Below, piece after piece: positions 1-37,869 of a stretch of DNA of 64,000 nt. The DNA is taken from NCBI GenBank assembly GCA_020328155.1, contig JAIXMX010000002.1, forward strand, positions 1,847 through 65,846, given 5' to 3'. The position numbers and the translations under genes were made by a program. Positions within the stretch are counted from its first letter, which is position 1; each line of letters begins with the position of its first letter. The DNA is from Candidatus Endomicrobiellum agilis. GTDB lineage: Bacteria > Elusimicrobiota > Endomicrobiia > Endomicrobiales > Endomicrobiaceae. Below the pieces are notes generated by a model. It worked only from the letters and a program-made list of their open reading frames with translations, made no database searches and was not told the DNA's origin.

Positions 1-625
<625 letters not shown>

Positions 626-629
<4 letters not shown>

Positions 630-825
630 GAGCCTAGAATGCCCGAAAACGTTGAGAGCGTTACAGAAGACATTTTAAAGGAAACACGCAACATCTACAT
701 TTCCGCACAGTCGTTAATAAGGCGGTTATGTGATAGGTTTGACGAGCTCCGAGAGAGCTGATTGATATGTGCGAAGACATAATAAGTTCAGTTTATAGAA
801 TTGAGGACAACTAATAAAATGAAAA
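626..825 (+). repeat. Conserved inter-cassette module, copy A (~200 bp; contains a small ORF, spacer, RBS and the ATG of the next lipoprotein gene)
   Basis: Near-identical to 1409..1609, with a handful of substitutions and one 1-nt indel. The flanking coding bodies are unrelated. Confidence 0.9.
639..761 (+). CDS. Conserved 40-aa small protein (MPENVESVTEDILKETRNIYISAQSLIRRLCDRFDELRES), copy A
   Basis: AGGAG lies 7 nt upstream of the ATG. It is too short for the ORF track. A second copy at 1422..1544 differs at 4 nt but only 1 aa. Confidence 0.6.
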   Translation: MPENVESVTEDILKETRNIYISAQSLIRRLCDRFDELRES

Positions 826-1412
826 AAACTATATGTATATGTATATGTATATGTATATGCCTGATGTCTGGCTGTGATAAGTCGCTTAGTCATGGAAGAC
901 CTGTGAATGCTGTTGTTGAGGATAAAGCAACGCATTCGCTGACGTCAGATACCTTAAATGCTTCTGCTCCTGAACCTTCAAACACTCCCACTCCAACACC
1001 TGAGCTGAGTAAGTCTGTTCAGCCGTCTGATACTACTGATACAGGTAGCTCGGTTGTGAAATATGGTCTTTGGGCTTTTGCTTTTATTGCTCTTATTGTT
1101 GGCTGTTATGATGTGTTTAGATATTTCAAACCTGAAAGAATAGAAATACCTGCGCCTAAGATTGCAGGTTATGTCCCTTCTACTTTTGACCAAATTGACC
1201 CTAAAGTTTACCAATTTTGTTATTGTAGGTATAACAGCGACATTTCTTATACTTGGTATTTTGCTAAAAGGAAAATTAAACGCTATTTTTGGACTGATTT
1301 TATACAGATGAAGAAAATTGATAGTAAAATACCTATTTATCAATTGTGTAATCCTTTGAATCATTCTTATCTTTTTAATTTTTATGTTTATAAGCCTGCA
1401 CCTAGCAAATAG
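819..1412 (+). CDS. Variable lipoprotein, paralogue B
   Basis: The ATG at 819 (the track start at 801 is an upstream TTG) gives MKKT-(IC)5-LMSGC-DKSLSHGR. It has the same N-terminal module as paralogue A, then a P/T-rich linker, the helix YGLWAFAFIALIVGCY and an unrelated C-terminus. Confidence 0.75.
   Translation: MKKTICICICICICLMSGCDKSLSHGRPVNAVVEDKATHSLTSDTLNASAPEPSNTPTPTPELSKSVQPSDTTDTGSSVVKYGLWAFAFIALIVGCYDVFRYFKPERIEIPAPKIAGYVPSTFDQIDPKVYQFCYCRYNSDISYTWYFAKRKIKRYFWTDFIQMKKIDSKIPIYQLCNPLNHSYLFNFYVYKPAPSK
830..859 (+). repeat. (ATATGT)n hexanucleotide microsatellite, ~5 units, encoding (Ile-Cys)5 in the signal peptide of paralogue B
   Basis: Direct reading: the same repeat as at 1-39, but shorter. 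Confidence 0.95.
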
Positions 1413-1609
1413 GAGCCTAGAATGCCCGAGAACGTTGAGAGCGTTACAGAAGACATTTTAAAGGAAACACGCAACATCTACATTTCCGCACAGCCGCTGA
1501 TAAGGCGGTTATGTGATAGGTTTGACGAGCTCCGAGAGAGCTGATTGATATGTGCGAAGACATAATAAGTTCAGTTTACAGGATTGGGGGACAACTAAGA
1601 AAATGAAAA
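1409..1609 (+). repeat. Conserved inter-cassette module, copy B (orphan: drives only a 5-codon stub)
   Basis: Aligns base-for-base with 626..825. Its terminal ATG (1603) reads M-K-T-A-E-stop (1603..1620) and runs into a terminator hairpin. Confidence 0.9.
1422..1544 (+). CDS. Conserved 40-aa small protein, copy B (S25P relative to copy A)
   Basis: Same RBS spacing as copy A. The differences from copy A are gaa>gag (synonymous), tcg>ccg (S>P) and tta>ctg (synonymous, 2 nt). Confidence 0.6.
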   Translation: MPENVESVTEDILKETRNIYISAQPLIRRLCDRFDELRES

Positions 1610-1645
1610 CAGCGGAGTGATGGAAAAGCACTCCGCTGTTTATAA
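1610..1645 (+). terminator. Intrinsic-terminator-like hairpin closing the cassette array
   Basis: Perfect 10-bp stem CAGCGGAGTG / CACTCCGCTG with a 9-nt loop, followed by TTTAT. Confidence 0.6.
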
Positions 1646-1710
1646 AGGAAATTAACCTCAAATCGTATATTGTTCACGATTTGAGATTTATATTGTACAA
1701 AAATTTAAGA

Positions 1711-1745
1711 AAAGCGCAATGAGTTTTCTCGTTGCGCTTTTTGCT
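1711..1745. terminator. Second terminator-like hairpin
   Basis: 9-bp stem AAAGCGCAA / TTGCGCTTT with a 12-nt loop. The 3' arm runs into a T-rich stretch (GCGCTTTTTGC). Confidence 0.5.
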
Positions 1746-1933
1746 TATTAAAAATATGTTATTATATATGTGTCGGTACGTGTTAATTCATCTTAAAACT
1801 AATTGATTTTTCAACATTTTGAGCGCTCACTAATTATCTGATATACTAATAATACTAAGTCCGACAAACGTCCGCCGGACGATTTTTTTCAAATTTTTTA
1901 AAGAACGAAAAAACAAAAATAAAGACGATAATA

Positions 1934-2125
1934 GTGCGGCAAGAAATTGCTGAAGAATTGAAAAAGGAATTGCCAAAACCAGAGTATGAGGATTGGATTA
2001 GTCCAATCCGAGAGCAGGTATATAGCGAAAAATTTAGCGAATTATCGTTAATTTGCCCAAACAATTACTATATAAACAAAATAAGGGAATACTGCGCTAA
2101 TAAGATAAAACCAATTATAAAATAA
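1934..2125 (+). CDS. Stand-alone DnaA domain-I (DnaA_N)-like protein, 63 aa, GTG start
   Basis: IAEELKKELPKPEYEDWISPI...LSLICPNNYYINKIREYCANKI follows the DnaA N-terminal pattern. Compare Bacillus subtilis LAQIEKKLSKPSFETWMKST...LTITAPNEFARDWLESRYLHLI. The ORF stops immediately after domain I. Confidence 0.5.
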   Translation: MRQEIAEELKKELPKPEYEDWISPIREQVYSEKFSELSLICPNNYYINKIREYCANKIKPIIK

Positions 2126-2821
2126 AAGTTCAGCGTTAATTATGAAAAAGTAAAAAGATTTCAAAAATCTGCCTGTTTAGTTATAAACTACAATATTAGC
2201 TGACTATTGGTTGCTGATAACTAAAATTCTTTGGGCGATGTTAGTAAAGCAATTTATTTGGACTGAGATGTAATAGCAAATAGAGATATATCAAAATTGC
2301 GGGATAAGCATTGATAATTATTTGTCCGATTGCATTGATATTGGCAGCAATTATTTTAATTCTGAAATAATGCTTTTGAACTCATTACGAATTAAGGAAA
2401 TTCAATTTCTATGACAAGTAGAAGAGGCGCGTTGAAGACAATATTGAAAAATTGGATATTACGGTCAGAGTATTTTGAATGCTGTCATAATTTACTAATA
2501 GTCAAAGCTGTGAAATTCATTATGTCGGTATCCTTTAGAGATTTCTATATTATGTATATAAAGATGACAAATTGAGGAGAGAATTTTAAATTTTCATTTT
2601 TTACTAGTAGGATATCGTTTATTAAGCTGTTTTTAAAATATTGGCTTATTCATCTTAAATTATGGAAAGCAGTAAAAAAGAAAGGCGCATTATTTGGGAT
2701 TTATTAAGGAAAAGAGCGCAATAGCGTTTTAATGTTGTTGATAATAGACATTTCCCCTAAATTTTTGTAAACTGATATTTTATATATGGATGATTAAGTA
2801 ACCAAATGGCTTTAGGATTAT

Positions 2822-3361
2822 ATGTCTTGCTTGAAACGTTTTAAACAGCCAAGAGGACAAGCGCTTGTTGAAGCTGCTTTAATTGCGCCTCTCATCATTT
2901 TTTTTCTTTTTACGATTATATGGTTTGTCCGTATTATGCTTACGTGGCAGCAGATTTCCACGGCTGCTAGATATGGTACGGATTTGATTGCGTACACTCC
3001 TTTCAGCAAAAAATATATAGAAGACGATATTAAAAATTATCTTTGCAATACAAATATAATCGGCAGAACTCTTGATCCGGAAAAGCTTGATATTAAAATT
3101 GAAATAAATGATTATGAACCTTTTGATGTTGAACATGTTTTTAATGTTGCAAATTTTAATCCTAAAAATTTCTTTAATACGTTAAAAGGATTAACTGTGT
3201 TTGGCGAAAAGTCTGTTGTAGAGATAACATACTCATATAAAATCCCGGAAGTATTAAAAATAACAGATAGAGAAAGCATAAAAATAAAAGCGCGCTCGGA
3301 GGTGTTGTCCGGAACTGGAAGCAAAGGCGCTCCAAAACGCCAAAAATCAAAGAGAGGATAA
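2822..3361 (+). CDS. tadE: TadE-like pseudopilin / Flp pilus assembly protein
   Basis: The N-terminus KQPRGQALVEAALIAPLIIFFLF is the TadE-type prepilin-like segment (G, then E at +5, then a hydrophobic helix). It is the first gene of the Tad cluster. Confidence 0.75.
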   Translation: MSCLKRFKQPRGQALVEAALIAPLIIFFLFTIIWFVRIMLTWQQISTAARYGTDLIAYTPFSKKYIEDDIKNYLCNTNIIGRTLDPEKLDIKIEINDYEPFDVEHVFNVANFNPKNFFNTLKGLTVFGEKSVVEITYSYKIPEVLKITDRESIKIKARSEVLSGTGSKGAPKRQKSKRG

Positions 3362-3367
3362 GAAAGG

Positions 3368-3544
3368 ATGTTAAATTTTGGTTGGATTAAAAGGCATAAA
3401 GGGCAGGGAATGGTTGAGTATATTCTTATTGTTGCGGTAATAGTGGGGATTGTTTTTGTCGCCTATAAAGCTTTCGGAAAAAAAGTTAAAGAGAAATTTG
3501 AAGTAGCTACGAAAACGGTGCAGAAAGCAGATAAACTTAAATAA
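3368..3544 (+). CDS. flp: Flp-family type IVb pilin, 58 aa (not in the ORF track)
   Basis: MLNFGWIKRHKG|QGMVEYILIVAVIVGIVFVAY carries the Flp motif G-x4-EY followed by a hydrophobic helix. GAAAGG lies just upstream of the ATG. It sits between tadE-like and cpaB. Confidence 0.8.
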   Translation: MLNFGWIKRHKGQGMVEYILIVAVIVGIVFVAYKAFGKKVKEKFEVATKTVQKADKLK

Positions 3545-3559
3545 ATATGGTTAAAAATT

Positions 3560-4387
3560 ATGAAAAAGACAATATTGTTTGCCCTTATTTTCGCCCTTAT
3601 TTCTGCATTTTTTGCTTATATGTATTTATCCGATTTGGAAATTAAGTATAAAACAATGGCTGAACCTGTGAGAGCGGTTATTGCAACGCGGAAAATCCCT
3701 CAAGGGACAGTTATAAGGTCGCATATGCTTGCTGAAAAACATATTCCGAAGGAATTCGTACAACCGAAAGCGTTTCAAAGTATAAAGGAGTTATTTACCA
3801 GCGATGGTACTGCAGTTTATATATCATTGAATGTGATTGAAGAAGGCGAGCAAATACTTTCAACGAAAATATCGAAAACGAATCAAGAAACCGGAATAGG
3901 CACTTTAATTCCTGAAAGCAAAAAAGCGTTATCAATAAACTTTGATATAGAAACATCGGATATTTTAACTCCCGGATCAAGAATAGATATTTTCAGCATA
4001 ATAGATTATTCCGATACGAGTAGAGAATTTCAGGAATCAGTATTTGCAGTCGCACAAAATATTCTCGTCTTAGCAGTGGGTAACAATTGCATAGGAACTG
4101 TAAGAAAACGGGATGATGATTCTGGAAATGCCAATGTTGTAACTTTAGCTGTATCTGTTGAGGAAGCGCAGAAAATTCTTATAGCTTCGAAAAAAGGAAG
4201 CCTTAAATATATAATAAGGCCTGTTGGCGATGTTGAGATATCGGATATAAAACCCTTAAAACTTTCTTCAATTGTGAAAGATGTTTCAAAAATAACGACG
4301 CCTGAAAAAAATACAAAAGATCCAAGACAGATAAACCAAAAAGAAATCTTAGAAATAATGAAAAAATATTCAAATATTAAAAAATAA
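3560..4387 (+). CDS. cpaB: Flp pilus assembly protein CpaB/RcpC
   Basis: An N-terminal TM anchor is followed by a region of the form V.V..A...I..GT.I....L....IP typical of CpaB (SAF-like). The gene context supports the call. Confidence 0.75.
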   Translation: MKKTILFALIFALISAFFAYMYLSDLEIKYKTMAEPVRAVIATRKIPQGTVIRSHMLAEKHIPKEFVQPKAFQSIKELFTSDGTAVYISLNVIEEGEQILSTKISKTNQETGIGTLIPESKKALSINFDIETSDILTPGSRIDIFSIIDYSDTSREFQESVFAVAQNILVLAVGNNCIGTVRKRDDDSGNANVVTLAVSVEEAQKILIASKKGSLKYIIRPVGDVEISDIKPLKLSSIVKDVSKITTPEKNTKDPRQINQKEILEIMKKYSNIKK

Positions 4388-4452
4388 TAAAAAATTATTT
4401 CAAATAAAAACGTCCAAAGGTGATGTACTTTACCTCGTCTAAGGAATAAATA

Positions 4453-6441
4453 ATGCTTTTAATAGCTCCTGGATGTAATATAGTGCAGCGAGATATAATC
4501 GCACATGGTTTGTCTTGCATAAGCGCAAATAAAAGAGAAGAAAACATTATTCTTGATTTTTCCATTCCCGGAACTGAAGCTTTTTGGTCAATATACAAGA
4601 ATGGAATGAAATATGTCGAGGACATACTGCCTGTTTTGTCTGGAATAAATCCTAAAATTTTAAGAGATTATTTGTCCCCTTTCGGGGCGAGTATGGTGCT
4701 TGGACTGAAAGATACAAAGGTAAGCGATATAAATATTGAAAGGATTTTATATCTTATTGCAGCTCTCGAAATCGGATTTAAATATGTTTTTGTTGTTATG
4801 CCTGACGAATTAAGCGGTAATGCGTTAGATCTTATAAAAGAATCAAGATACGTACTTCTTCCTTATATGTCAGACGCGGTATCTGAAAAGAACGCGATTT
4901 TCATTTCAAAAGAGTATAATTCTGTGTTGTCAAATGTAAATTTTATAACTTTAAAACTTGATGTCGGCTATGATTTTCATACGGATAAAGTGTTAGATGG
5001 TTTTGAAATTTTTAAGAATAGTATTCGCTCTGATTTCAGTTTTCATGTGCAAGAACAGGTGCTATCTCCGAAATTTTCTTATAGAGATAAATCAAATTCT
5101 TACGTCTCAGCTTTGGAAAATATAATTGGTATTTACAGTACACAAATAGGAACTGTAAATGTATCTGCCGGCGATTATTATAAAAATGAAACCGTATATA
5201 AGGAATTAAGAGATAGTATTCAAAAAGTGCTTTTAGAAGAAATGAAAGATTATGCCGATGAAACAGATAGTGAAAAATTAAAACAGATAGCAAAGAATAA
5301 AATAAGCGAAATCATTAAAAAGAAAGAACTCATTATACCGAAAGATGTTTCAGATAAGCTTTACAAGGAGCTTTGCGACGATATTGCAGGACTCGGCGTT
5401 TTGGAAGATTTTTTAAACGATTCTTCAATTACGGAAGTAATGGTTAACGGTCCTGACAGCATATTTGTTGAAAAAGCTGGAAAAATATCAAAGACGAATA
5501 TATCTTTTCCTGACGAAGGCAGACTCAAAACCGTTATAGATAGAATAGTTTCTCAGGTCGGCAGGCATATTGACGAATCGTCGCCTATTGTTGACGCAAG
5601 ACTTAAGGACGGTTCGCGAGTAAATGCGGTAATAAGACCTGTATCTTTGAACGGTCCCGTAATTACGATAAGAAAGTTTTTAAAAAATAAACTTCAGACA
5701 GATTCTTTGATTTCGTCGGGAAGCGTCAGTAAATCAATGGTTGAGTTTTTAAAAACGTCGGTTATTTTAAAAAGAAATATTATTGTTTCAGGCGGTACAG
5801 GAACCGGGAAAACTACTCTTTTAAATGCCATATCCTCGTTTATACCTGAAAAAGAAAGACTTGTTACCATTGAAGATTCTGCAGAATTACAACTTCAGCA
5901 GGAGCATGTGGTGAGGCTTGAAAGCAGACCGAAGTCAACAGAGGGAACAGGCGAAATAGACATAAGAAGGCTTGTGGTAAATGCTTTAAGAATGCGTCCT
6001 GACAGAATAATTGTGGGAGAATGTCGTTCGGGCGAAGCGCTTGATATGATTCAAGCGATGTCAACAGGACATGAAGGCAGTCTTACAACTTTGCATGCAA
6101 ATTCGCCGCAAGATGCAGTTTCAAGGCTTGTGACAATGGTGTTGATGTCGGGGATGGATTTGCCGGAACGCTCGATTGTCTCGCAAATTGCATCTGCAAT
6201 TAATATTATAGTACAGCTTACCCGTTATTCCGACGGTTCAAGAAAAATATCTTCAATTTCCATATTAAATAAAACGGATGATGACAGAATGTATGAAATT
6301 AAACCTGTTTTTGCGTTTGATTTAAGAGGTTTTGAAAACGGTATCCAAAAAGGCAGTTTTATTTTTTCAGGATATATTCCGGAATTTGTGAATACGGCTT
6401 CGCAAAAGGGAGTAAATATAGATATGGGAATTTTCAAATGA
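4453..6441 (+). CDS. tadA: Tad secretion ATPase TadA/CpaF with an extended N-terminus resembling a P-loop-less TadZ/CpaE domain
   Basis: The C-terminal ~380 aa hold the VirB11/CpaF core: GLGVLEDFLND..ITEVMVNG, Walker A SGGTGTGKTT, RLVTIEDSAEL, Asp/His boxes and TGHEGSLTTLHANS. About 320 aa precede the core, compared with the ~100-170 I recall for other TadA/CpaF proteins. Confidence 0.85.
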   Translation: MLLIAPGCNIVQRDIIAHGLSCISANKREENIILDFSIPGTEAFWSIYKNGMKYVEDILPVLSGINPKILRDYLSPFGASMVLGLKDTKVSDINIERILYLIAALEIGFKYVFVVMPDELSGNALDLIKESRYVLLPYMSDAVSEKNAIFISKEYNSVLSNVNFITLKLDVGYDFHTDKVLDGFEIFKNSIRSDFSFHVQEQVLSPKFSYRDKSNSYVSALENIIGIYSTQIGTVNVSAGDYYKNETVYKELRDSIQKVLLEEMKDYADETDSEKLKQIAKNKISEIIKKKELIIPKDVSDKLYKELCDDIAGLGVLEDFLNDSSITEVMVNGPDSIFVEKAGKISKTNISFPDEGRLKTVIDRIVSQVGRHIDESSPIVDARLKDGSRVNAVIRPVSLNGPVITIRKFLKNKLQTDSLISSGSVSKSMVEFLKTSVILKRNIIVSGGTGTGKTTLLNAISSFIPEKERLVTIEDSAELQLQQEHVVRLESRPKSTEGTGEIDIRRLVVNALRMRPDRIIVGECRSGEALDMIQAMSTGHEGSLTTLHANSPQDAVSRLVTMVLMSGMDLPERSIVSQIASAINIIVQLTRYSDGSRKISSISILNKTDDDRMYEIKPVFAFDLRGFENGIQKGSFIFSGYIPEFVNTASQKGVNIDMGIFK

Positions 6442-7250
6442 CAGAAATATTTTTTCTTATTTCTCTCGCTGCGTTTATATTTTGTTTTGTATATTTTTTT
6501 GTAAGTAAAATTGGGATAAAAATAAGAGAAAAAAAGAAAAAATCTTTTGATTTTAAGAGTTTAACTATTAAGAGGAAAAGAGCGCTTATTTCGCTGTTTA
6601 TTTTTCTTTTATCGGCGATTTTGCTGCATAATATTATTTTTGCATTTATTTTATGTATTTTTTATCTGTATTTCGACTGGTATATAAAGGATAAAAACAG
6701 GCGTAAACTTGTAAATTTAATGGACAAACAGGTTGTTGAAGCTTTAACTGTTATAAAAAGTGCAGTGCAGGCGGGGCAATCTCTTCAGAATGCAATTAGT
6801 ACTGCTCAAAATGAACTTAAAGATCCTATAAAGCGCGAATTTGAAAAGATGGCAGACAAATTGGCTTTGGGAGTGAGTTTTGATAGAGTTTTGGAAGACA
6901 CTTCACAGAACTCTAAGAGTAAGGAATTTAAACTTATGATAGACACCATAAGGATATCTAAAAACACGGGAGCGAGTTTAAGCGGCATATTTGACAGAAT
7001 AACCGATTCTACAAGCCAAAGAGTTGCAATACAGTCAAAAATAGTTGCTCTGACGGCACAGGGCAGAATGTCCGGAAATATTGTAAGCGTTATACCGTTT
7101 GTAGTTATATTTATGATGTATATAATTGAAGCTGATATGATGAAATCTTTATTTGTTACTTTGCCGGGCAATATTTTGCTTTTGATTGTAGTTGCGATGG
7201 TGCTCGCAGGCTCGTTTATTATAAGAAAAATGACGGAGATTGATTTTTAA
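6438..7250 (+). CDS. tadB: Tad platform protein TadB (T2SSF domain)
   Basis: T2SSF-like segment (VEALTVIKSAVQAGQSLQNAI...) between TM helices. Overlaps the tadA stop. Confidence 0.8.
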   Translation: MTEIFFLISLAAFIFCFVYFFVSKIGIKIREKKKKSFDFKSLTIKRKRALISLFIFLLSAILLHNIIFAFILCIFYLYFDWYIKDKNRRKLVNLMDKQVVEALTVIKSAVQAGQSLQNAISTAQNELKDPIKREFEKMADKLALGVSFDRVLEDTSQNSKSKEFKLMIDTIRISKNTGASLSGIFDRITDSTSQRVAIQSKIVALTAQGRMSGNIVSVIPFVVIFMMYIIEADMMKSLFVTLPGNILLLIVVAMVLAGSFIIRKMTEIDF

Positions 7251-8128
7251 TGATTGTATTATCTTGCGTATTTTCAGGTTTATTTGTGTTTTTTATGGTT
7301 TACTATCTGCTTGTAAACATCAGAATAATGGAAATTGCGGGAAGAGTGCATAATGCTGTTGAAAAAAGAGAGAGTAAAAGTTTTATATTACCCGTGATAA
7401 TGAATAATGCCGAAAAACTCGGCAGACTTATAGCCTATGTAAAATATAGGAAGTTTACAGTTGAGATTGATAAAATTGGAGTAATTTTAAAATCTATCGG
7501 CGGCAGTTATGAAAGAGTTAATCCTTACCAGTTCTTTGCACTTCAATTGTTTACAATGATCGCCGGAGTATTATTTGTCGTTATTCTTATAAGTACTGAT
7601 ATTTTTGTAATATTGTTGTTTGGGTTGATTTTCTTTTTTTTGCCTCTTTTGAAAATTAGAGAAGAAGTCAAGAAGAGAAAAGAACTTATAGCAAGACAAT
7701 TGCCAGATATGGCGGATTTACTTTCGGTTATGCTTGACGCAGGTCTTGACTTTTACGGAGCTGCTGAAAAAGTCATACAAATACTGCAAGGTCCGTTAGC
7801 AGATGAATTTAGAAGTGCTTTGGCAAAAGTTTCTCTCGGATATGATAAAAAAGCTGCTTTGACAGAAATGGTGCAGAAAACTGAAGTTGAACAGATGGGT
7901 TTTTTTGTCAGGACAGTAAATATGTCGCTTGAATCAGGCACGGGAATGTCGGATACTTTAAAACGTTTGACTATTTCCTTGAGAAATGAAAGAACATCGT
8001 CTGCCGAAAAAAAAGCGCAGGAAGCGCCCGTAAAAATGCTTATCCCTTTAGTATTGTTAATATTTCCGACTATATTTATAGTTATTTTCGGACCGATAGT
8101 GATCAATTTTATAAAAACAGGCTTCTGA
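7250..8128 (+). CDS. tadC: Tad platform protein TadC (T2SSF domain)
   Basis: LPDMADLLSVMLDAGLDFYGAAEKV plus C-terminal TM helices. Its start abuts the tadB stop. Confidence 0.8.
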   Translation: MIVLSCVFSGLFVFFMVYYLLVNIRIMEIAGRVHNAVEKRESKSFILPVIMNNAEKLGRLIAYVKYRKFTVEIDKIGVILKSIGGSYERVNPYQFFALQLFTMIAGVLFVVILISTDIFVILLFGLIFFFLPLLKIREEVKKRKELIARQLPDMADLLSVMLDAGLDFYGAAEKVIQILQGPLADEFRSALAKVSLGYDKKAALTEMVQKTEVEQMGFFVRTVNMSLESGTGMSDTLKRLTISLRNERTSSAEKKAQEAPVKMLIPLVLLIFPTIFIVIFGPIVINFIKTGF

Positions 8129-8306
8129 TTTGCTCTAAGATATGATAAGTTCTGTCAAATTGTTGTATATAGCAATAGAATGCCAGAGAAAAAGCAGACT
8201 GGGCAAGAATCCTAAAGAAAAATAAATAAGATTGTAAATAAACAAGCCTCAAGTGTAAATATTGCATATAATTTATAAAAATTTATTTGGGAATGGGCAG
8301 TGTACC

Positions 8307-9461
8307 ATGAAAAGTAAAATAGTAATTTTAACGGTTTTAACATTAGTTTTTAGCTCAATAGCTTTTGCATCACAACCGCGGAAGGAAAAAGAAGCAGTAA
8401 TAAAAGGTTTACGTCCTATGGGTATGGGCGGTGCTTTTACTGCGGTTTCTAATGATGAAAATGTATTCTTTTACAACCCTGCAGGTATAACTCGAAAAAG
8501 AAGTGATTGTTTAGTTCAGTTTTCTGCTATTGAAGCTGCCGTAAGTAGTCAGAAATTTGATTATTATAATTTCTATAAGGACAATAAAGTCGATTTGCAT
8601 AATTTTGGTAATCTTCCACTTGCGGACAAGAGTAGATTATTGATACAGGCGATGGAGAATGTCAATTATATTTTTATTTCAGGTCCAAAAATTTTATTTA
8701 TTGCCGAACCTATAGATGTTGCCGAGAACTCTTTGAATTTTGGTTTTGGCATTTTTTCTTATGCCGATTTAAGCTTTGATAAGCTTCGTCCATTGTCGTT
8801 TGAAATGGAAACTGCTGCGATGGGTATTCTTCCCGTCGCTTTTAAAATTAAGTCGCTTAAAGCAATAAAACTTCCCGGATCATTGTCTTTGGGAGCAAAT
8901 TTTAAATATATGTACAGAGCAAAGAGTTTTGGCGATAGTATGATGATTGTTGAGAATTACGATAAGTATGTTTTTGTTGGCGGAAAGTCTTTTGGAATAG
9001 ATTTGGGAACAATATATCATTTGAATTCGCACTGGAATTTCGGTTTGAGTATAGCAGATTTTTATGGTTCTGAAATAGAGTATAAGAAATTTAATTTAGC
9101 ATCATATAGGTCTTCAGAGATTTGTTATACGGCAAAAGTTAATCCGAAGCTAAACTTTGGAGCAGCATATATAAATGGCAAATTTGTTTTTGCATTTGAC
9201 TTAACAGACTTAATGAATCCAGATTTTGGCGAGGTTACTATTAAAAATTTACTACGTATCGGCGGACATGTCGGTGCTGAGTATAAATTTGGTATATTTG
9301 TTATAAGAGGAGGATTGAATTTTGGTTATCCTACAATTGGAGGAGGGATTGTTTCCGATGTAATTCGTCTTGAATATGCGTTTTACGGGGAAGAAAAAGG
9401 AAATTATGCGTGCAGAAAACCTGCTTGGTTTCATAGGATAGCGCTTTCTTTCAGATTTTAG
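8307..9461 (+). CDS. Outer-membrane beta-barrel protein (FadL/PorV/TraF-like family signature)
   Basis: The ATG at 8307 gives the signal peptide MKSKIVILTVLTLVFSSIAFA. The motif GMGGAFTAVSNDENVFFYNPAG is present. The sequence has alternating beta-strand character and ends in a terminal aromatic (..LSFRF). Confidence 0.65.
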   Translation: MKSKIVILTVLTLVFSSIAFASQPRKEKEAVIKGLRPMGMGGAFTAVSNDENVFFYNPAGITRKRSDCLVQFSAIEAAVSSQKFDYYNFYKDNKVDLHNFGNLPLADKSRLLIQAMENVNYIFISGPKILFIAEPIDVAENSLNFGFGIFSYADLSFDKLRPLSFEMETAAMGILPVAFKIKSLKAIKLPGSLSLGANFKYMYRAKSFGDSMMIVENYDKYVFVGGKSFGIDLGTIYHLNSHWNFGLSIADFYGSEIEYKKFNLASYRSSEICYTAKVNPKLNFGAAYINGKFVFAFDLTDLMNPDFGEVTIKNLLRIGGHVGAEYKFGIFVIRGGLNFGYPTIGGGIVSDVIRLEYAFYGEEKGNYACRKPAWFHRIALSFRF

Positions 9462-9748
9462 AATAAATTTATGTTAAAAAAGAAACAAAAGCAGAAATAA
9501 GGCAGAATAGCAGTGATGTTGTAGTAATTTACAGGATTTAAGATTTGCTGTGTACGAAACATGCAAATTTTTGAAACGTATTTCAGGAAGGGTTTTAAAA
9601 ATAGAGAAAACGGAAGCACATCAAAACGGTCTGTCCGCAGAAAATGGCGACACCAAAAAAACCACGCTGTTATAAGAAAACATATATATATTTTATGTAA
9701 GACATTATCATTTTATTCTATATCTTTTAAAGTCGGTCTGAAAAAATA

Positions 9749-10759
9749 CTATTTTATTTTAACGATTGTTCCTGCAATTTTATCGTCAGTGCTTATTGAA
9801 ACTGCGGTGATTGTGTAGTTATCAAAAGATTCATTGACTTCTTTTCCTGGGTTTTCATTAGCTTTAGTTATTACCTTAATCAGATTTTGGTTTTCTGAAA
9901 TTTCAAGTATATGTCCACTTTTTTCAAAATCTTTTTTCAAGATATTGTCAGTATTGTCGTAAGCATATACGACTCTGTTTAGTGAATTTAAGATTATAAA
10001 TGTCAGACTATCTTTAACTGACGTTTCCTGTGAATACTCAATAATTTTGCTTAAGCTTTCTCTGTCTTCTTCTAGTATTTCTATTTTCTTTACAATTTTT
10101 TCTCTTTCTGTCACAAAAATATCTGTGATTTCATCGTATTTGCCTTCTTTTATATTTTCCGAAGATTTGTTCTCCAAAGATTTTTTTATTTTTTTAAACG
10201 GCAGCATTATAAGTAATTTTGAAAGAAAATAGAGAATTGTTGCAATAAGTAATGCAACGGACGAGGCGACGGCGTAGTATTTTACTTTCCAATGTTTTGC
10301 AGTTTCTTTTGCTTTTTGGACTGAAAATACACAAAACAGCGTGTGGTTATCCGTGAGCGGTTCTGAAAATAGTAAAAAATCTTTGTCGGACGTTTGTTGT
10401 AAAAATTCAGCCTTTTGTTTTATTGCTTTATTGTAAATCCCGCTGGTTCTTTCTGTATTCCATTCACTTACGTTGTTATGTATGGTTACCTTGCTGTTTT
10501 TATCCAAAATAAAGCAGGTTGTAATATTTTCTATTTTTGCAACTGATTCAATATTTATAAGAAGATTTATATCGTCTGAATTTTCAAGAGCTTTGTTAAG
10601 AGACGGGACGATTACTTTTAAGGCGGATTTGGCTTTTTCCACCGCCATAATTTCCATATCTCTTGCTTTGTCTTTTGAAAGGAATTCAACAAGCGGGTAA
10701 AAAACTCCACAGACTACTATTAGTGATAAAAACGATAGGAATATAATATTTTTTCTCAT
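9749..10759 (-). CDS. Membrane protein of unknown function: two TM helices flank an extracytoplasmic domain, followed by a cytoplasmic coiled-coil/alpha-beta tail
   Basis: A 336-aa ORF in an AT-rich sequence is unlikely by chance. It has an N-terminal helix IIFLSFLSLIVVCGVFY and a second helix YYAVASSVALLIATILYFL. I recognised no catalytic motif. Confidence 0.7.
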   Translation of the reverse strand: MRKNIIFLSFLSLIVVCGVFYPLVEFLSKDKARDMEIMAVEKAKSALKVIVPSLNKALENSDDINLLINIESVAKIENITTCFILDKNSKVTIHNNVSEWNTERTSGIYNKAIKQKAEFLQQTSDKDFLLFSEPLTDNHTLFCVFSVQKAKETAKHWKVKYYAVASSVALLIATILYFLSKLLIMLPFKKIKKSLENKSSENIKEGKYDEITDIFVTEREKIVKKIEILEEDRESLSKIIEYSQETSVKDSLTFIILNSLNRVVYAYDNTDNILKKDFEKSGHILEISENQNLIKVITKANENPGKEVNESFDNYTITAVSISTDDKIAGTIVKIK

Positions 10760-10880
10760 GATAAATTTAATTATAACATAAATTGTAACGAGTTGTCATC
10801 GTGGACCGGCAGCGTTAACTTAAACAGTATAGGAATTGCTTTTTCGTGTTGTCGGTTTTCTATATTAAAGGATTTTAAGA

Positions 10881-11198
10881 ATGGAAGATATAAAGTTAAA
10901 TATAACTATATTGAGAGCGGAAACATTCTGGAAAAGATTTAGAGGATTTATGTTAAAAAGAAGCGCAAATTATGCTCTTTTGTTTGACAAATGTAAATCT
11001 GTGCATACTTTTTTTATGCGCTTTGATTTGGATATTGTCTATTTAGACGACAAAAAAAGAGTTGTAAAAGTTATAAGATCTTTAAAACCTTTCAGGATAG
11101 TGTTGCCCGTAAAAAATGCGGTTTCAATTCTTGAGATTCCTTCAGGTATTATTGACGTCGGAGCGTTGCAAGCATTTAAGAAATTGATTGATTTTTAA
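10881..11198 (+). CDS. DUF192 (COG1430) family protein
   Basis: AETFWKRFRGFMLKR...ALLF....SVHTFFMRFDLDIVYLD matches the DUF192 pattern (A.T...R..GLM.R...F....WM.nt..pLDi.f.d). Confidence 0.65.
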   Translation: MEDIKLNITILRAETFWKRFRGFMLKRSANYALLFDKCKSVHTFFMRFDLDIVYLDDKKRVVKVIRSLKPFRIVLPVKNAVSILEIPSGIIDVGALQAFKKLIDF

Positions 11199-37458: not shown

Positions 37459-37869
37459 ATGTCAAAGAATGTCCGTATTTATTTGGTTTGTTTCTTATTT
37501 TTAGGTTTATGCTTGTTGTTTGGAGTTCTGTCTCTTGCCAAAAAAACTGAGGTGCTTGACGAAGAACATAAGGTGCTTGTTGAAAAATATAATGTGCTTT
37601 GTGAAAGCTTAGCTAGTTTTTTAAACTTAGAAGTTGAGTCGTTTGGCGAAAGGCGTGTTGACATTTTAAAGTATTATGCACCTTTACGTGTTCATAAGGG
37701 GCTTGTCGAAGGATATAATAAGATTGCCAAAGAGCATAATAAGTTTATCGAAAAAGCTGAGACGCTTGACAAAAAAGATAAGAGAGAATTGATAAAGCTT
37801 TATAAAAAATCGGTAAAAGTTCTTGAAAAATCATTTGATATAATTTCAAAAGCTTGTAGTAATCTTTAA
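37459..37869 (+). CDS. Membrane-anchored hypothetical protein (136 aa)
   Basis: N-terminal helix IYLVCFLFLGLCLLFGVLSLA followed by a Lys/Glu-rich helical body. I recognised no family. Confidence 0.45.
   Translation: MSKNVRIYLVCFLFLGLCLLFGVLSLAKKTEVLDEEHKVLVEKYNVLCESLASFLNLEVESFGERRVDILKYYAPLRVHKGLVEGYNKIAKEHNKFIEKAETLDKKDKRELIKLYKKSVKVLEKSFDIISKACSNL

Follow-up and report, generated by a model that had tools for sequence, protein, structure and literature searches.

A polymorphic, in-frame hexanucleotide repeat in lipoprotein signal peptides of Candidatus Endomicrobiellum agilis and related sequences

Repeats at the 5' end of the coding sequence occur in bacterial surface-protein genes such as those of the Neisseria opa family, with a CTCTT pentamer, and the Helicobacter outer-membrane-protein genes, with CT dinucleotides. 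In human CNDP1 a (CTG)n repeat encodes a run of leucines in the signal peptide, and the repeat number is reported to change secretion efficiency. Here we describe a hexanucleotide tract, (ATATGT)n, that is translated as alternating Ile-Cys in the signal peptides of two neighbouring lipoprotein genes, paralogues A and B, at the start of a 64,000-nucleotide (nt) stretch of DNA from Candidatus Endomicrobiellum agilis (GCA_020328155.1, contig JAIXMX010000002.1, positions 1,847 to 65,846 of the forward strand; hereafter the window). We find that the tract is a genuine microsatellite, which varies in copy number and stays in frame within lipoprotein signal peptides.

Like the repeat of CNDP1, the tract is an in-frame repeat that lengthens the hydrophobic core (h-region) of a signal peptide. 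CNDP1, however, is a eukaryotic gene with a trinucleotide repeat that codes for a single amino acid, and it is for CNDP1 that an effect on secretion is reported. With opa and the Helicobacter genes the family described here has in common a slippage-prone 5' coding repeat, membership of a surface or membrane multigene family and a copy number that varies between strains. The resemblance is superficial: the units of those repeats are not multiples of three and lead to on/off switching, whereas the unit here is 6 nt long and all states from n=2 to n=8 are in frame; we therefore speak of length variation and not of phase variation. Compared with a contingency locus, the polymorphic simple repeat is present and frame-shifting on/off switching is absent. 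Further likeness is found in the variable lipoproteins of Mollicutes (Vlp of Mycoplasma hyorhinis, Vsp of M. bovis and Vsa of M. pulmonis), which also combine tandem lipoprotein arrays, a conserved leader and signal peptide, a divergent mature region, size-changing in-frame repeats and recombination. Their repeats, in contrast, lie in the mature, surface-exposed part of the protein, and these families switch by means of site-specific invertases or of poly(A) tracts in promoters; a limited search found neither here. The sequences are not homologous to Vlp, Vsp or Vsa, and Pfam and NCBIfam searches gave no family match for the A or B protein.

Among such systems with a 5' repeat, sabA is treated in PMC2715451. 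According to the abstract of PMC4470592, the nuSa-alpha genomic island of Staphylococcus aureus holds a tandem lipoprotein-like (lpl) cluster, which resembles the present locus as a strain-variable tandem cluster of paralogous lipoprotein genes; the lpl proteins form an unrelated family, and that abstract describes no signal-peptide microsatellite for them. The closest precedent is the (Leu-Ala)n repeat of SMPD1, the human acid sphingomyelinase, for which PMC2241771 (citing Wan and Schuchman 1995) gives a signal-peptide hexanucleotide repeat (LALALA) of 4-10 units. Both are in-frame 6-nt units that encode a hydrophobic dipeptide repeat in the h-region, with a polymorphic copy number and the frame kept. 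SMPD1 is a single-copy gene with a eukaryotic endoplasmic reticulum signal peptide, an imperfect unit, CTGG(TC)(GT), and no phenotype tied to its alleles, whereas here a bacterial signal peptide of the SPase II type, a multigene family, Ile-Cys and a perfect AT-rich unit are found. Alleles of differing repeat number are present here across natural samples, n=4 in three and n=5 in one with flanks otherwise identical, these being small numbers drawn from assemblies. Full-text searches in an open-access library yielded no example of a bacterial in-frame repeat that forms a signal-peptide h-region, which is absence of evidence and not proof of novelty.

The Ile-Cys tract and its translation

Tandem Repeats Finder detected two period-6 tracts on the plus strand at the start of the window, tract B at 830-859, (TATATG)5, with 5.0 copies and 100% matches, and tract A at 1-39, (TATGTA)6.5, with 6.5 copies and 100% matches. 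The window opens inside tract A and cuts its 5' side, so that its copy number is a lower bound and the start codon of gene A lies outside the window. No other perfect period-6 tract of at least 18 nt is present in the 64-kb window. The longest perfect period-6 tract per simulation averaged 15 nt over 300 second-order Markov simulations of the window and reached at most 19 nt; at 30 nt and 39 nt, respectively, tracts B and A are therefore far beyond chance.

The reading frames of both genes confirm the original prediction, made from the letters of the window, of an in-frame hexanucleotide repeat read as (Ile-Cys)n in the h-region of a lipoprotein-type signal peptide. In gene B the ATG at 819-821 is followed by AAA AAA ACT and then by the Ile-Cys codons, (ATA TGT)4 ATA TGC, at 831-860. 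The next five codons, CTG ATG TCT GGC TGT at 861-875, form an L-M-S-G-C lipobox in which Cys19 is the predicted lipidation and cleavage site, and the N-terminus as a whole reads MKKT(IC)5-LMSGC-DK. The frame of gene A, which we deduced from its lipobox at 42-56, runs from TGT at 3-5 to ATA at 36-38 and continues with TTC TTG ACG TCT GGC TGT at 39-56. It reads ...(CI)6-FLTSGC-DK, with at least six Cys-Ile pairs and an L-T-S-G-C lipobox (TTG ACG TCT GGC TGT) that was accepted by a lipobox pattern check and has its Cys at 54-56. That tract length differs between the paralogues also holds, with 5 units in B versus at least 6.5 in A. The tract had further been placed immediately before S-G-C; it does precede the lipobox, but two residues (L-M) in B and three (F-L-T) in A, parts of the lipobox themselves, intervene. 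The perfect pyrimidine-purine alternation of the tract is likewise real and spans 830-860, whereas the proneness to non-B DNA that had been attached to it receives no support from hairpin prediction, on the basis of which a hairpin or cruciform in the tract is rejected (ΔG -0.3 to -1.4 kcal/mol, z about 0). An antisense open reading frame (ORF) at 726-935 on the minus strand, which reads YTYTYT through the tract, was rejected as spurious; elsewhere the antisense frame differs (HIHIHI) or the length of the ORF does.

We scanned 156 kb of related DNA, consisting of the window and twelve related loci, on both strands for tracts of at least two perfect ATATGT units. All 21 tracts found are on the coding strand, with none elsewhere, and all 21 are in frame with a downstream coding sequence that is full length except at a 22-codon pseudogene (position 128 of locus L011). 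Twenty of them directly follow an ATGA[AG]AAAA start (ATGAAAAAA), and the twenty-first is paralogue A, which the edge of the window truncates. At least three lipoprotein subfamilies begin with the tract; they differ in their lipoboxes, have unrelated mature parts and are of the LMSGC/FL[TAS]SGC, SSFGC and SLTAGC types. The longest example, 53 nt at 5535-5587 of L010, a locus from a sister genome, belongs to a gene at 5524-6294 whose product begins MKKI(IC)8ISLTAGC and has residue 27 as its lipobox Cys. This 8-unit gene encodes a Lys/Glu/Pro-rich membrane protein with a mature part unrelated to the window family, and it is absent from the protein search database. Although it matches locally, the junction pattern had no match in the genome or metagenome contig collections, and a protein-based search for the locus in genomes found none. 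One further candidate locus, L002, was discarded as a false positive, a high-GC contig that matched antisense to a penicillin-binding-protein gene.

All members of the family share MKK or MRK, a hydrophobic stretch and [STAF]-G-C in the same position. The n-region is positively charged (MKK, or MRK/MKR) in essentially all of them, and S-G-C is invariant in a 25-sequence alignment. The h-region is uncharged and hydrophobic, comprising 12 residues in B and at least 16 in A, with a mean Kyte-Doolittle hydropathy of 3.1-3.7; in P0019, a member with n=2, it consists of 6 residues, under the usual ~7-22. Members that lack the repeat carry classical lipoprotein signal peptides, for example MKKVLSLLLCIILVSGC and MKKVMSLLLIAVLISGC. 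The lipoboxes of B (LMSGC) and A (LTSGC) fit the consensus [LVI..][ASTVIM..][GAS]-Cys, for which a Cys near residue 15-35 is usual. Under two simple pattern rules for lipoproteins (G+LPP-like and PROSITE PS51257-like), signal peptides of the B type pass with n=3-9 and those of the A type with n=2-8, and the sole member outside them is P0019 (LMSGC type, Cys at residue 13). Repeated Cys in a signal peptide, which had been remarked on as odd, is indeed unusual, but it represents one state in a graded series in which interrupted members already read x-Cys-x-Cys (ISVCLCIC, ICVCVCLCIC).

We regard it as highly improbable that the tract is not a functional coding feature, whether because the length differences are assembly errors, because the tract is an untranslated leader with the true start at the Met of LMSGC, or because the repeat-bearing copies are decaying pseudogenes. 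It is true that metagenome gene callers often start at that internal Met, producing MSGCDK... proteins without a signal peptide, that paralogue A has no entry in the protein database, whereas B has one, and that one tract heads the 22-codon pseudogene in L011. However, many repeat-bearing members have no internal Met (FLTSGC, FLASGC, FLSSGC, SSFGC, SLTAGC and LISGC types), and the start must therefore be upstream of the tract. An internal start would leave the protein without a signal peptide and is impossible in the FLTSGC, FLASGC, SSFGC and SLTAGC members. A start downstream of the repeat, named in the original prediction as a finding that would overturn it, is thus contradicted both by the Met-less members and by the conserved order of MKK, hydrophobic stretch and lipobox. 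Also against these readings, the frame is always kept with full-length ORFs downstream, the C-terminal domain of B is conserved and confidently modelled, a tract of 24-36 nt is well within short-read length, and three independent samples agree on n=4 with identical flanks.

Repeat number and signal-peptide length

Across the family the repeat number ranges from n=2 to n=8. In a plasmid gene (protein P0026) we find n=4 in loci L003, L005 and L006 and n=5 in L004; P0026 was called from its internal Met, and the identical called protein could thus be located on several contigs. A 261-column alignment of the four loci contains one 6-nt unit as its sole internal difference, and the elements that carry the 4- versus 5-unit gene, two of which are complete, are 99.3-99.7% identical overall. 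A second orthologous pair has n=5 in L008, from a JGI metagenome, versus n=4 in L009 (GCA_020328115.1), with 92% identity through the gene. One-unit changes are therefore observed between otherwise identical or near-identical genes. Counting units in related strains had been proposed as a check on variation, and an identical number everywhere as evidence against tuning; the comparison gives 4 versus 5 units at two orthologous loci, so that uniformity fails, and every observed change keeps the frame, in agreement with the statement that a 6-nt unit never breaks it.

Paralogues vary as well. The stretch of 28 residues that follows the lipobox Cys is identical in paralogue A (n of at least 6) and P0058 on the same contig (n=5). 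Among homologous SSFGC genes n is 3 or 5, and SLTAGC paralogues within one genome have n=3, 4 and 8. The database held no orthologues of the 8-unit gene, its matches being paralogues with n=3 and n=4. No length change was detected in the orthologue set P0064/67/68 (n=3) or in the interrupted-tract sets P0059/70/71/72 and P0050/74, and a single Cys-to-Tyr substitution was the sole change noted in these control sets. Variation appears to be confined to longer, pure tracts, broadly as replication slippage would predict.

We surveyed signal-peptide length in 37 distinct members of the family. Where a perfect tract is lacking, the lipobox Cys is almost always at residue 17 of an MKK-type signal peptide, and the few such members that seem longer are explained by N-terminal extensions added by the gene caller. 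With a perfect tract, the Cys is at residue 13 (n=2), 19, 21, at least 23 (paralogue A) or 27 (n=8). The exception is a decayed five-unit tract, ICVCVCLCIC, with its Cys at 19. The cores form a graded series, from unrelated hydrophobic sequence (VLSLLLCIILV) through interrupted x-Cys-x-Cys to perfect (IC)n. Among the interrupted cores ISVCLCIC is found in 14 sequences, and ICVCLCIC, IGICICIC, ICACLCIF and CLYIC also occur; most substitutions change the hydrophobic residue through the first position of its codon (ATA to GTA, TTA or GTG), and in some cores Cys is replaced by Ser, Gly, Tyr or Trp. That so many members have interrupted tracts argues against a general preservation of purity by selection. 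The microsatellite was probably born in an h-region that was already Cys-rich, such as ISVCLCIC, and would lengthen and shorten while perfect and be frozen by interruptions.

The account that we favour, and hold to be probable though far from certain, is that of a translated, in-frame (ATA-TGT)n that forms a lipoprotein-type h-region, is changed by slippage and is mostly near-neutral. The tract makes up most of the hydrophobic core in a signal peptide of the form MKK[IT]-(IC)n-[LM/IFLT/SS..]-[SAF]-G-C, and its host genes are a strain-variable, plasmid-associated family of small membrane lipoproteins in Endomicrobium and Ca. Endomicrobiellum agilis. Replication slippage would add or remove whole 6-nt units and shift the signal peptide by two residues per step. 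The resulting variation in length would be mostly tolerated and not used, the tract acting as a near-neutral mutational hotspot in a permissive segment, and the observed range would keep the h-region at ~6-20 residues, roughly acceptable to Sec targeting and lipoprotein processing. The tract is neither an on/off switch nor a proven rheostat.

A selected role for the same variation seems to us unlikely. Slippage would in that case be adaptive, with two-residue steps that grade Sec targeting, Lgt/LspA processing or membrane retention, and each lipoprotein would acquire heritable, reversible, quantitative expression states. Such a role is in keeping with the wide polymorphism between strains and paralogues (n=2-8, Cys at residue 13-27), with the confinement of the tract to signal peptides and its recurrence in several lipoprotein subfamilies, and with its place in a fast-evolving plasmid-linked family, the type of gene set in which variation is often selected. 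With n=2 and n=8 the signal peptides come close to the bounds set by the simple lipoprotein rules, and there processing could plausibly be affected; the leucine repeat of human CNDP1 shows that secretion can depend on repeat number. However, many members have lost slippability by point substitutions with their length unchanged, several orthologue sets are invariant, including sets with n=3 and n=4, and the commonest lengths, 17-19, match those of members without a perfect tract, as if deviations were merely tolerated. In SMPD1, the nearest precedent, alleles of 4-10 units have no detected phenotype (PMC2241771). It is because of these four observations that we consider the near-neutral reading the most likely.

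Several points weigh against that reading or narrow it. The recurrence of the tract on at least three subfamilies, with perfect tracts of up to 53 nt, could reflect selection for the tract, and neutrality is something that we infer. P0019 falls below the usual length rules, so that not every state need be functional. The polymorphism is known from assembled contigs, in two orthologue sets whose alleles are one unit apart, and an n=4 orthologue set, P0075/77/79, is invariant across three sources. With two variable sets and this invariant one, the tract is polymorphic but not hypervariable.

A plasmid-linked, mosaic gene family

Locus L003 (1-5983) ends in a 1,071-bp terminal redundancy of 100% identity, the assembly signature of a circle, and thus represents a circular plasmid-like element of 4,912 bp. 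The element was found in L003 and L004 (ENA assemblies ERZ28648417, ERZ28641514) and also in L013. On it are three lipoprotein genes, of which one has the tract, together with a 68-aa ORF and a gene for a 440-aa protein, likely a replication initiator, in which a DnaA_N domain and a weak Rep3_N match below threshold were detected. PMC11257099 names Em. agilis and mentions neither plasmids nor lipoproteins; no description of the circular element was found in the Endomicrobia genome paper that was searched.

Positions 1-1860 of the window are homologous to this element. The 40-codon ORFs of the window are truncated copies of its 68-aa ORF, and a 63-aa ORF at 1934-2125 on the plus strand (Pfam DnaA_N, E = 1.1e-7) is a remnant of the 440-aa gene, of which L003 has a full-length homologue and L010 the same remnant. 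This remnant marks the window locus as plasmid-derived, and positions 1-2125 look like an integrated, decayed copy of the plasmid. As a partner gene the 40-aa ORF that follows each lipoprotein gene was rejected, being a truncated copy; it has no ATG in L001 and is reduced to 15 codons in L003-L006.

In the sister genome the syntenic locus L010 repeats the gene order of the window, with the family array, 68-aa ORF, DnaA_N remnant, TadE, Flp and RcpC. We compared L010 8001-9336 with window 1-2125; the flanks of the two strains (window 1409-9000) are 98.6% identical, and L010 lacks gene B together with one spacer copy (window 788-1408), a whole-cassette difference between strains. P0043, the L010 counterpart of A, shares 85% DNA identity with it and has an interrupted signal peptide of 17 residues; over the C-terminal 95 aa of A, the two share 93% identity. 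The lipoprotein cassette is immediately followed, from 2822-4387 of the window onward, by a Tad/Flp pilus locus with a TadE-like gene, a 58-aa Flp-like ORF and RcpC/CpaB, and the syntenic L010 continues with T2SSE and T2SSF genes.

The family is mosaic. In twenty pairs of proteins the 40 residues that follow the Cys share at least 90% identity and the C-terminal regions less than 45%, and conversely the same C-terminal domain is found on different 5' modules (P0019/P0027; P0010/P0021; paralogue A versus P0043). Arrays of 2-7 family genes are present in the window, L001, L007, L010 and L011. A limited search found no recombinase Pfam families among the called genes that flank the arrays, and there are no inverted repeats in window 1-2400. 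In L001 a six-gene family array (5800-10935) lies between two glycine-cleavage P-protein subunit genes (both Pfam GDC-P).

This mosaic structure bears on a second alternative, in which the tract has its role in DNA. The start codon and perfect tract, a stretch of 30-60 nt that is the same between paralogues, would serve as a homology patch for recombination or gene conversion and would swap promoters and leaders or 5' modules between cassettes, Ile-Cys being a tolerated by-product. Recombined 5' modules and C-termini (the 20 pairs above) are what such exchange would leave, and so is the whole cassette of gene B and spacer by which strains with 98.6% identical flanks differ. The similarity between L008 and L009 begins at the tract, with unrelated leaders upstream of the ATG, and a ATGAAAAAAATT(ATATGT)n head is common to lipoprotein genes with unrelated mature sequences. 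We nevertheless find this role very doubtful. The visible junctions are mostly in the Ser/Thr/Pro linker or the 181-nt spacer and not in the tract, members with interrupted tracts are equally mosaic, hairpin prediction gives no potential for the tract, and the limited search beside the arrays found no recombinase. Tracts of 18-30 nt are, moreover, at or under the usual minimal length for efficient homologous recombination.

Paralogue A (coding sequence 3-629, plus strand; 5' end outside the window) continues after ...(CI)6-FLTSGC with a Ser/Thr/Pro linker, a hydrophobic segment and a 'YGGYKPLYRFAD'-type C-terminal domain. It may have no database entry because it is unannotated, a pseudogene or near an assembly break; the locus tags of paralogues on the same contig suggest that the window start is internal to the contig. 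A first spacer (626-806), which holds a 40-codon ORF at 639-761 and runs into the 5' leader of gene B, is 96% identical to 1409-1589 and 95% identical to L003 1988-2148. A motif resembling a ribosome-binding site, GAGGA at 803-807, is read from the sequence 11 nt upstream of the gene B ATG, and the same motif is found upstream of family genes in L001 and L011. Paralogue B (819-1412, plus strand) encodes 197 aa. After MKKT(IC)5LMSGC come a Ser/Thr/Pro linker that is disordered, a transmembrane helix at residues 78-101 (nt 1050-1121) and a C-terminal domain rich in beta structure. Downstream, the second spacer copy (1409-1589, plus strand) contains another 40-codon ORF at 1422-1544, and at 1603-1643 there is a stub of a third family start (ATGAAAA...), the similarity of this region to the gene B leader stopping at ATGAAAA. 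The stub runs into a GC-rich hairpin (1610-1619 / 1629-1638) and then a T-run, which together look like a terminator of the array. The spacer contains no RNA element by folding (z-score -0.28) or by Rfam, where all matches were far below gathering scores.

In the architecture of the family, the signal peptide is followed by ~60 disordered residues rich in Ser/Thr/Pro, by a single transmembrane helix and by a C-terminal domain of ~90 residues; this domain is beta-rich and comes in several types, that of B being conserved. All protein homologues of A and B are Endomicrobium proteins, including Ca. Endomicrobiellum agilis, or unnamed JGI/ENA metagenome proteins. AlphaFold2 models the C-terminal domain of B (residues ~106-191, nt 1134-1391) as a compact beta-rich fold at a predicted local distance difference test score (pLDDT) of ~90, and a Foldseek search of the B model against the PDB gave no match better than E = 0.6; the domain may belong to a fold family that has so far escaped description and is confined to these symbionts. 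The Ser/Thr/Pro linkers hold more in-frame tandem repeats, CCATCA in 5.3 copies (Pro-Ser runs) and 24-30-nt units in two copies (L001 6489-6520, 7308-7370 and 10146-10192; window 952-1004), and the mature N-terminal region thus also varies in length.

Farther along the window, an imperfect 21-nt repeat (3.1 copies, 75-77% matches) at 37534-37606 lies inside a 136-aa ORF (37459-37869). Its unit is a multiple of three and would encode an in-frame, heptad-like protein repeat that is unrelated to the Ile-Cys tract. The window has ~35% GC and a GC skew of 0.15-0.27 that is strongly positive in every 4-kb bin, as would be expected if the whole window belonged to one replication arm and its plus strand were the leading strand.

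Meaning for the lipoproteins of the symbiont

A bolder proposal, which we judge quite unlikely, is that the tract is a non-switching contingency locus, a heritable and reversible rheostat of h-region length for each lipoprotein, the long end of which might give an uncleaved anchor; the tract might also shuffle 5' ends between plasmid and chromosomal cassettes. If this were true, an obligate intracellular symbiont would gain graded, copy-by-copy diversity of its envelope lipoproteome. On/off switching is the textbook effect of simple repeats in the genes of bacterial surface proteins, and the effect of the Ile-Cys tract would be graded, not binary. If the tract is neutral, it provides a clean case of microsatellite birth, expansion and decay within a permissive coding segment. 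The natural allelic series, from n=2 to at least 8 with the Cys at residue 13-27, is usable for the study of how h-region length affects Sec targeting and Lgt/LspA processing. Overall, the repeat reveals a lipoprotein family that evolves fast and is linked to plasmids; its carrier is an uncultured endosymbiont of termite-gut flagellates, in which host-facing envelope proteins are of interest.

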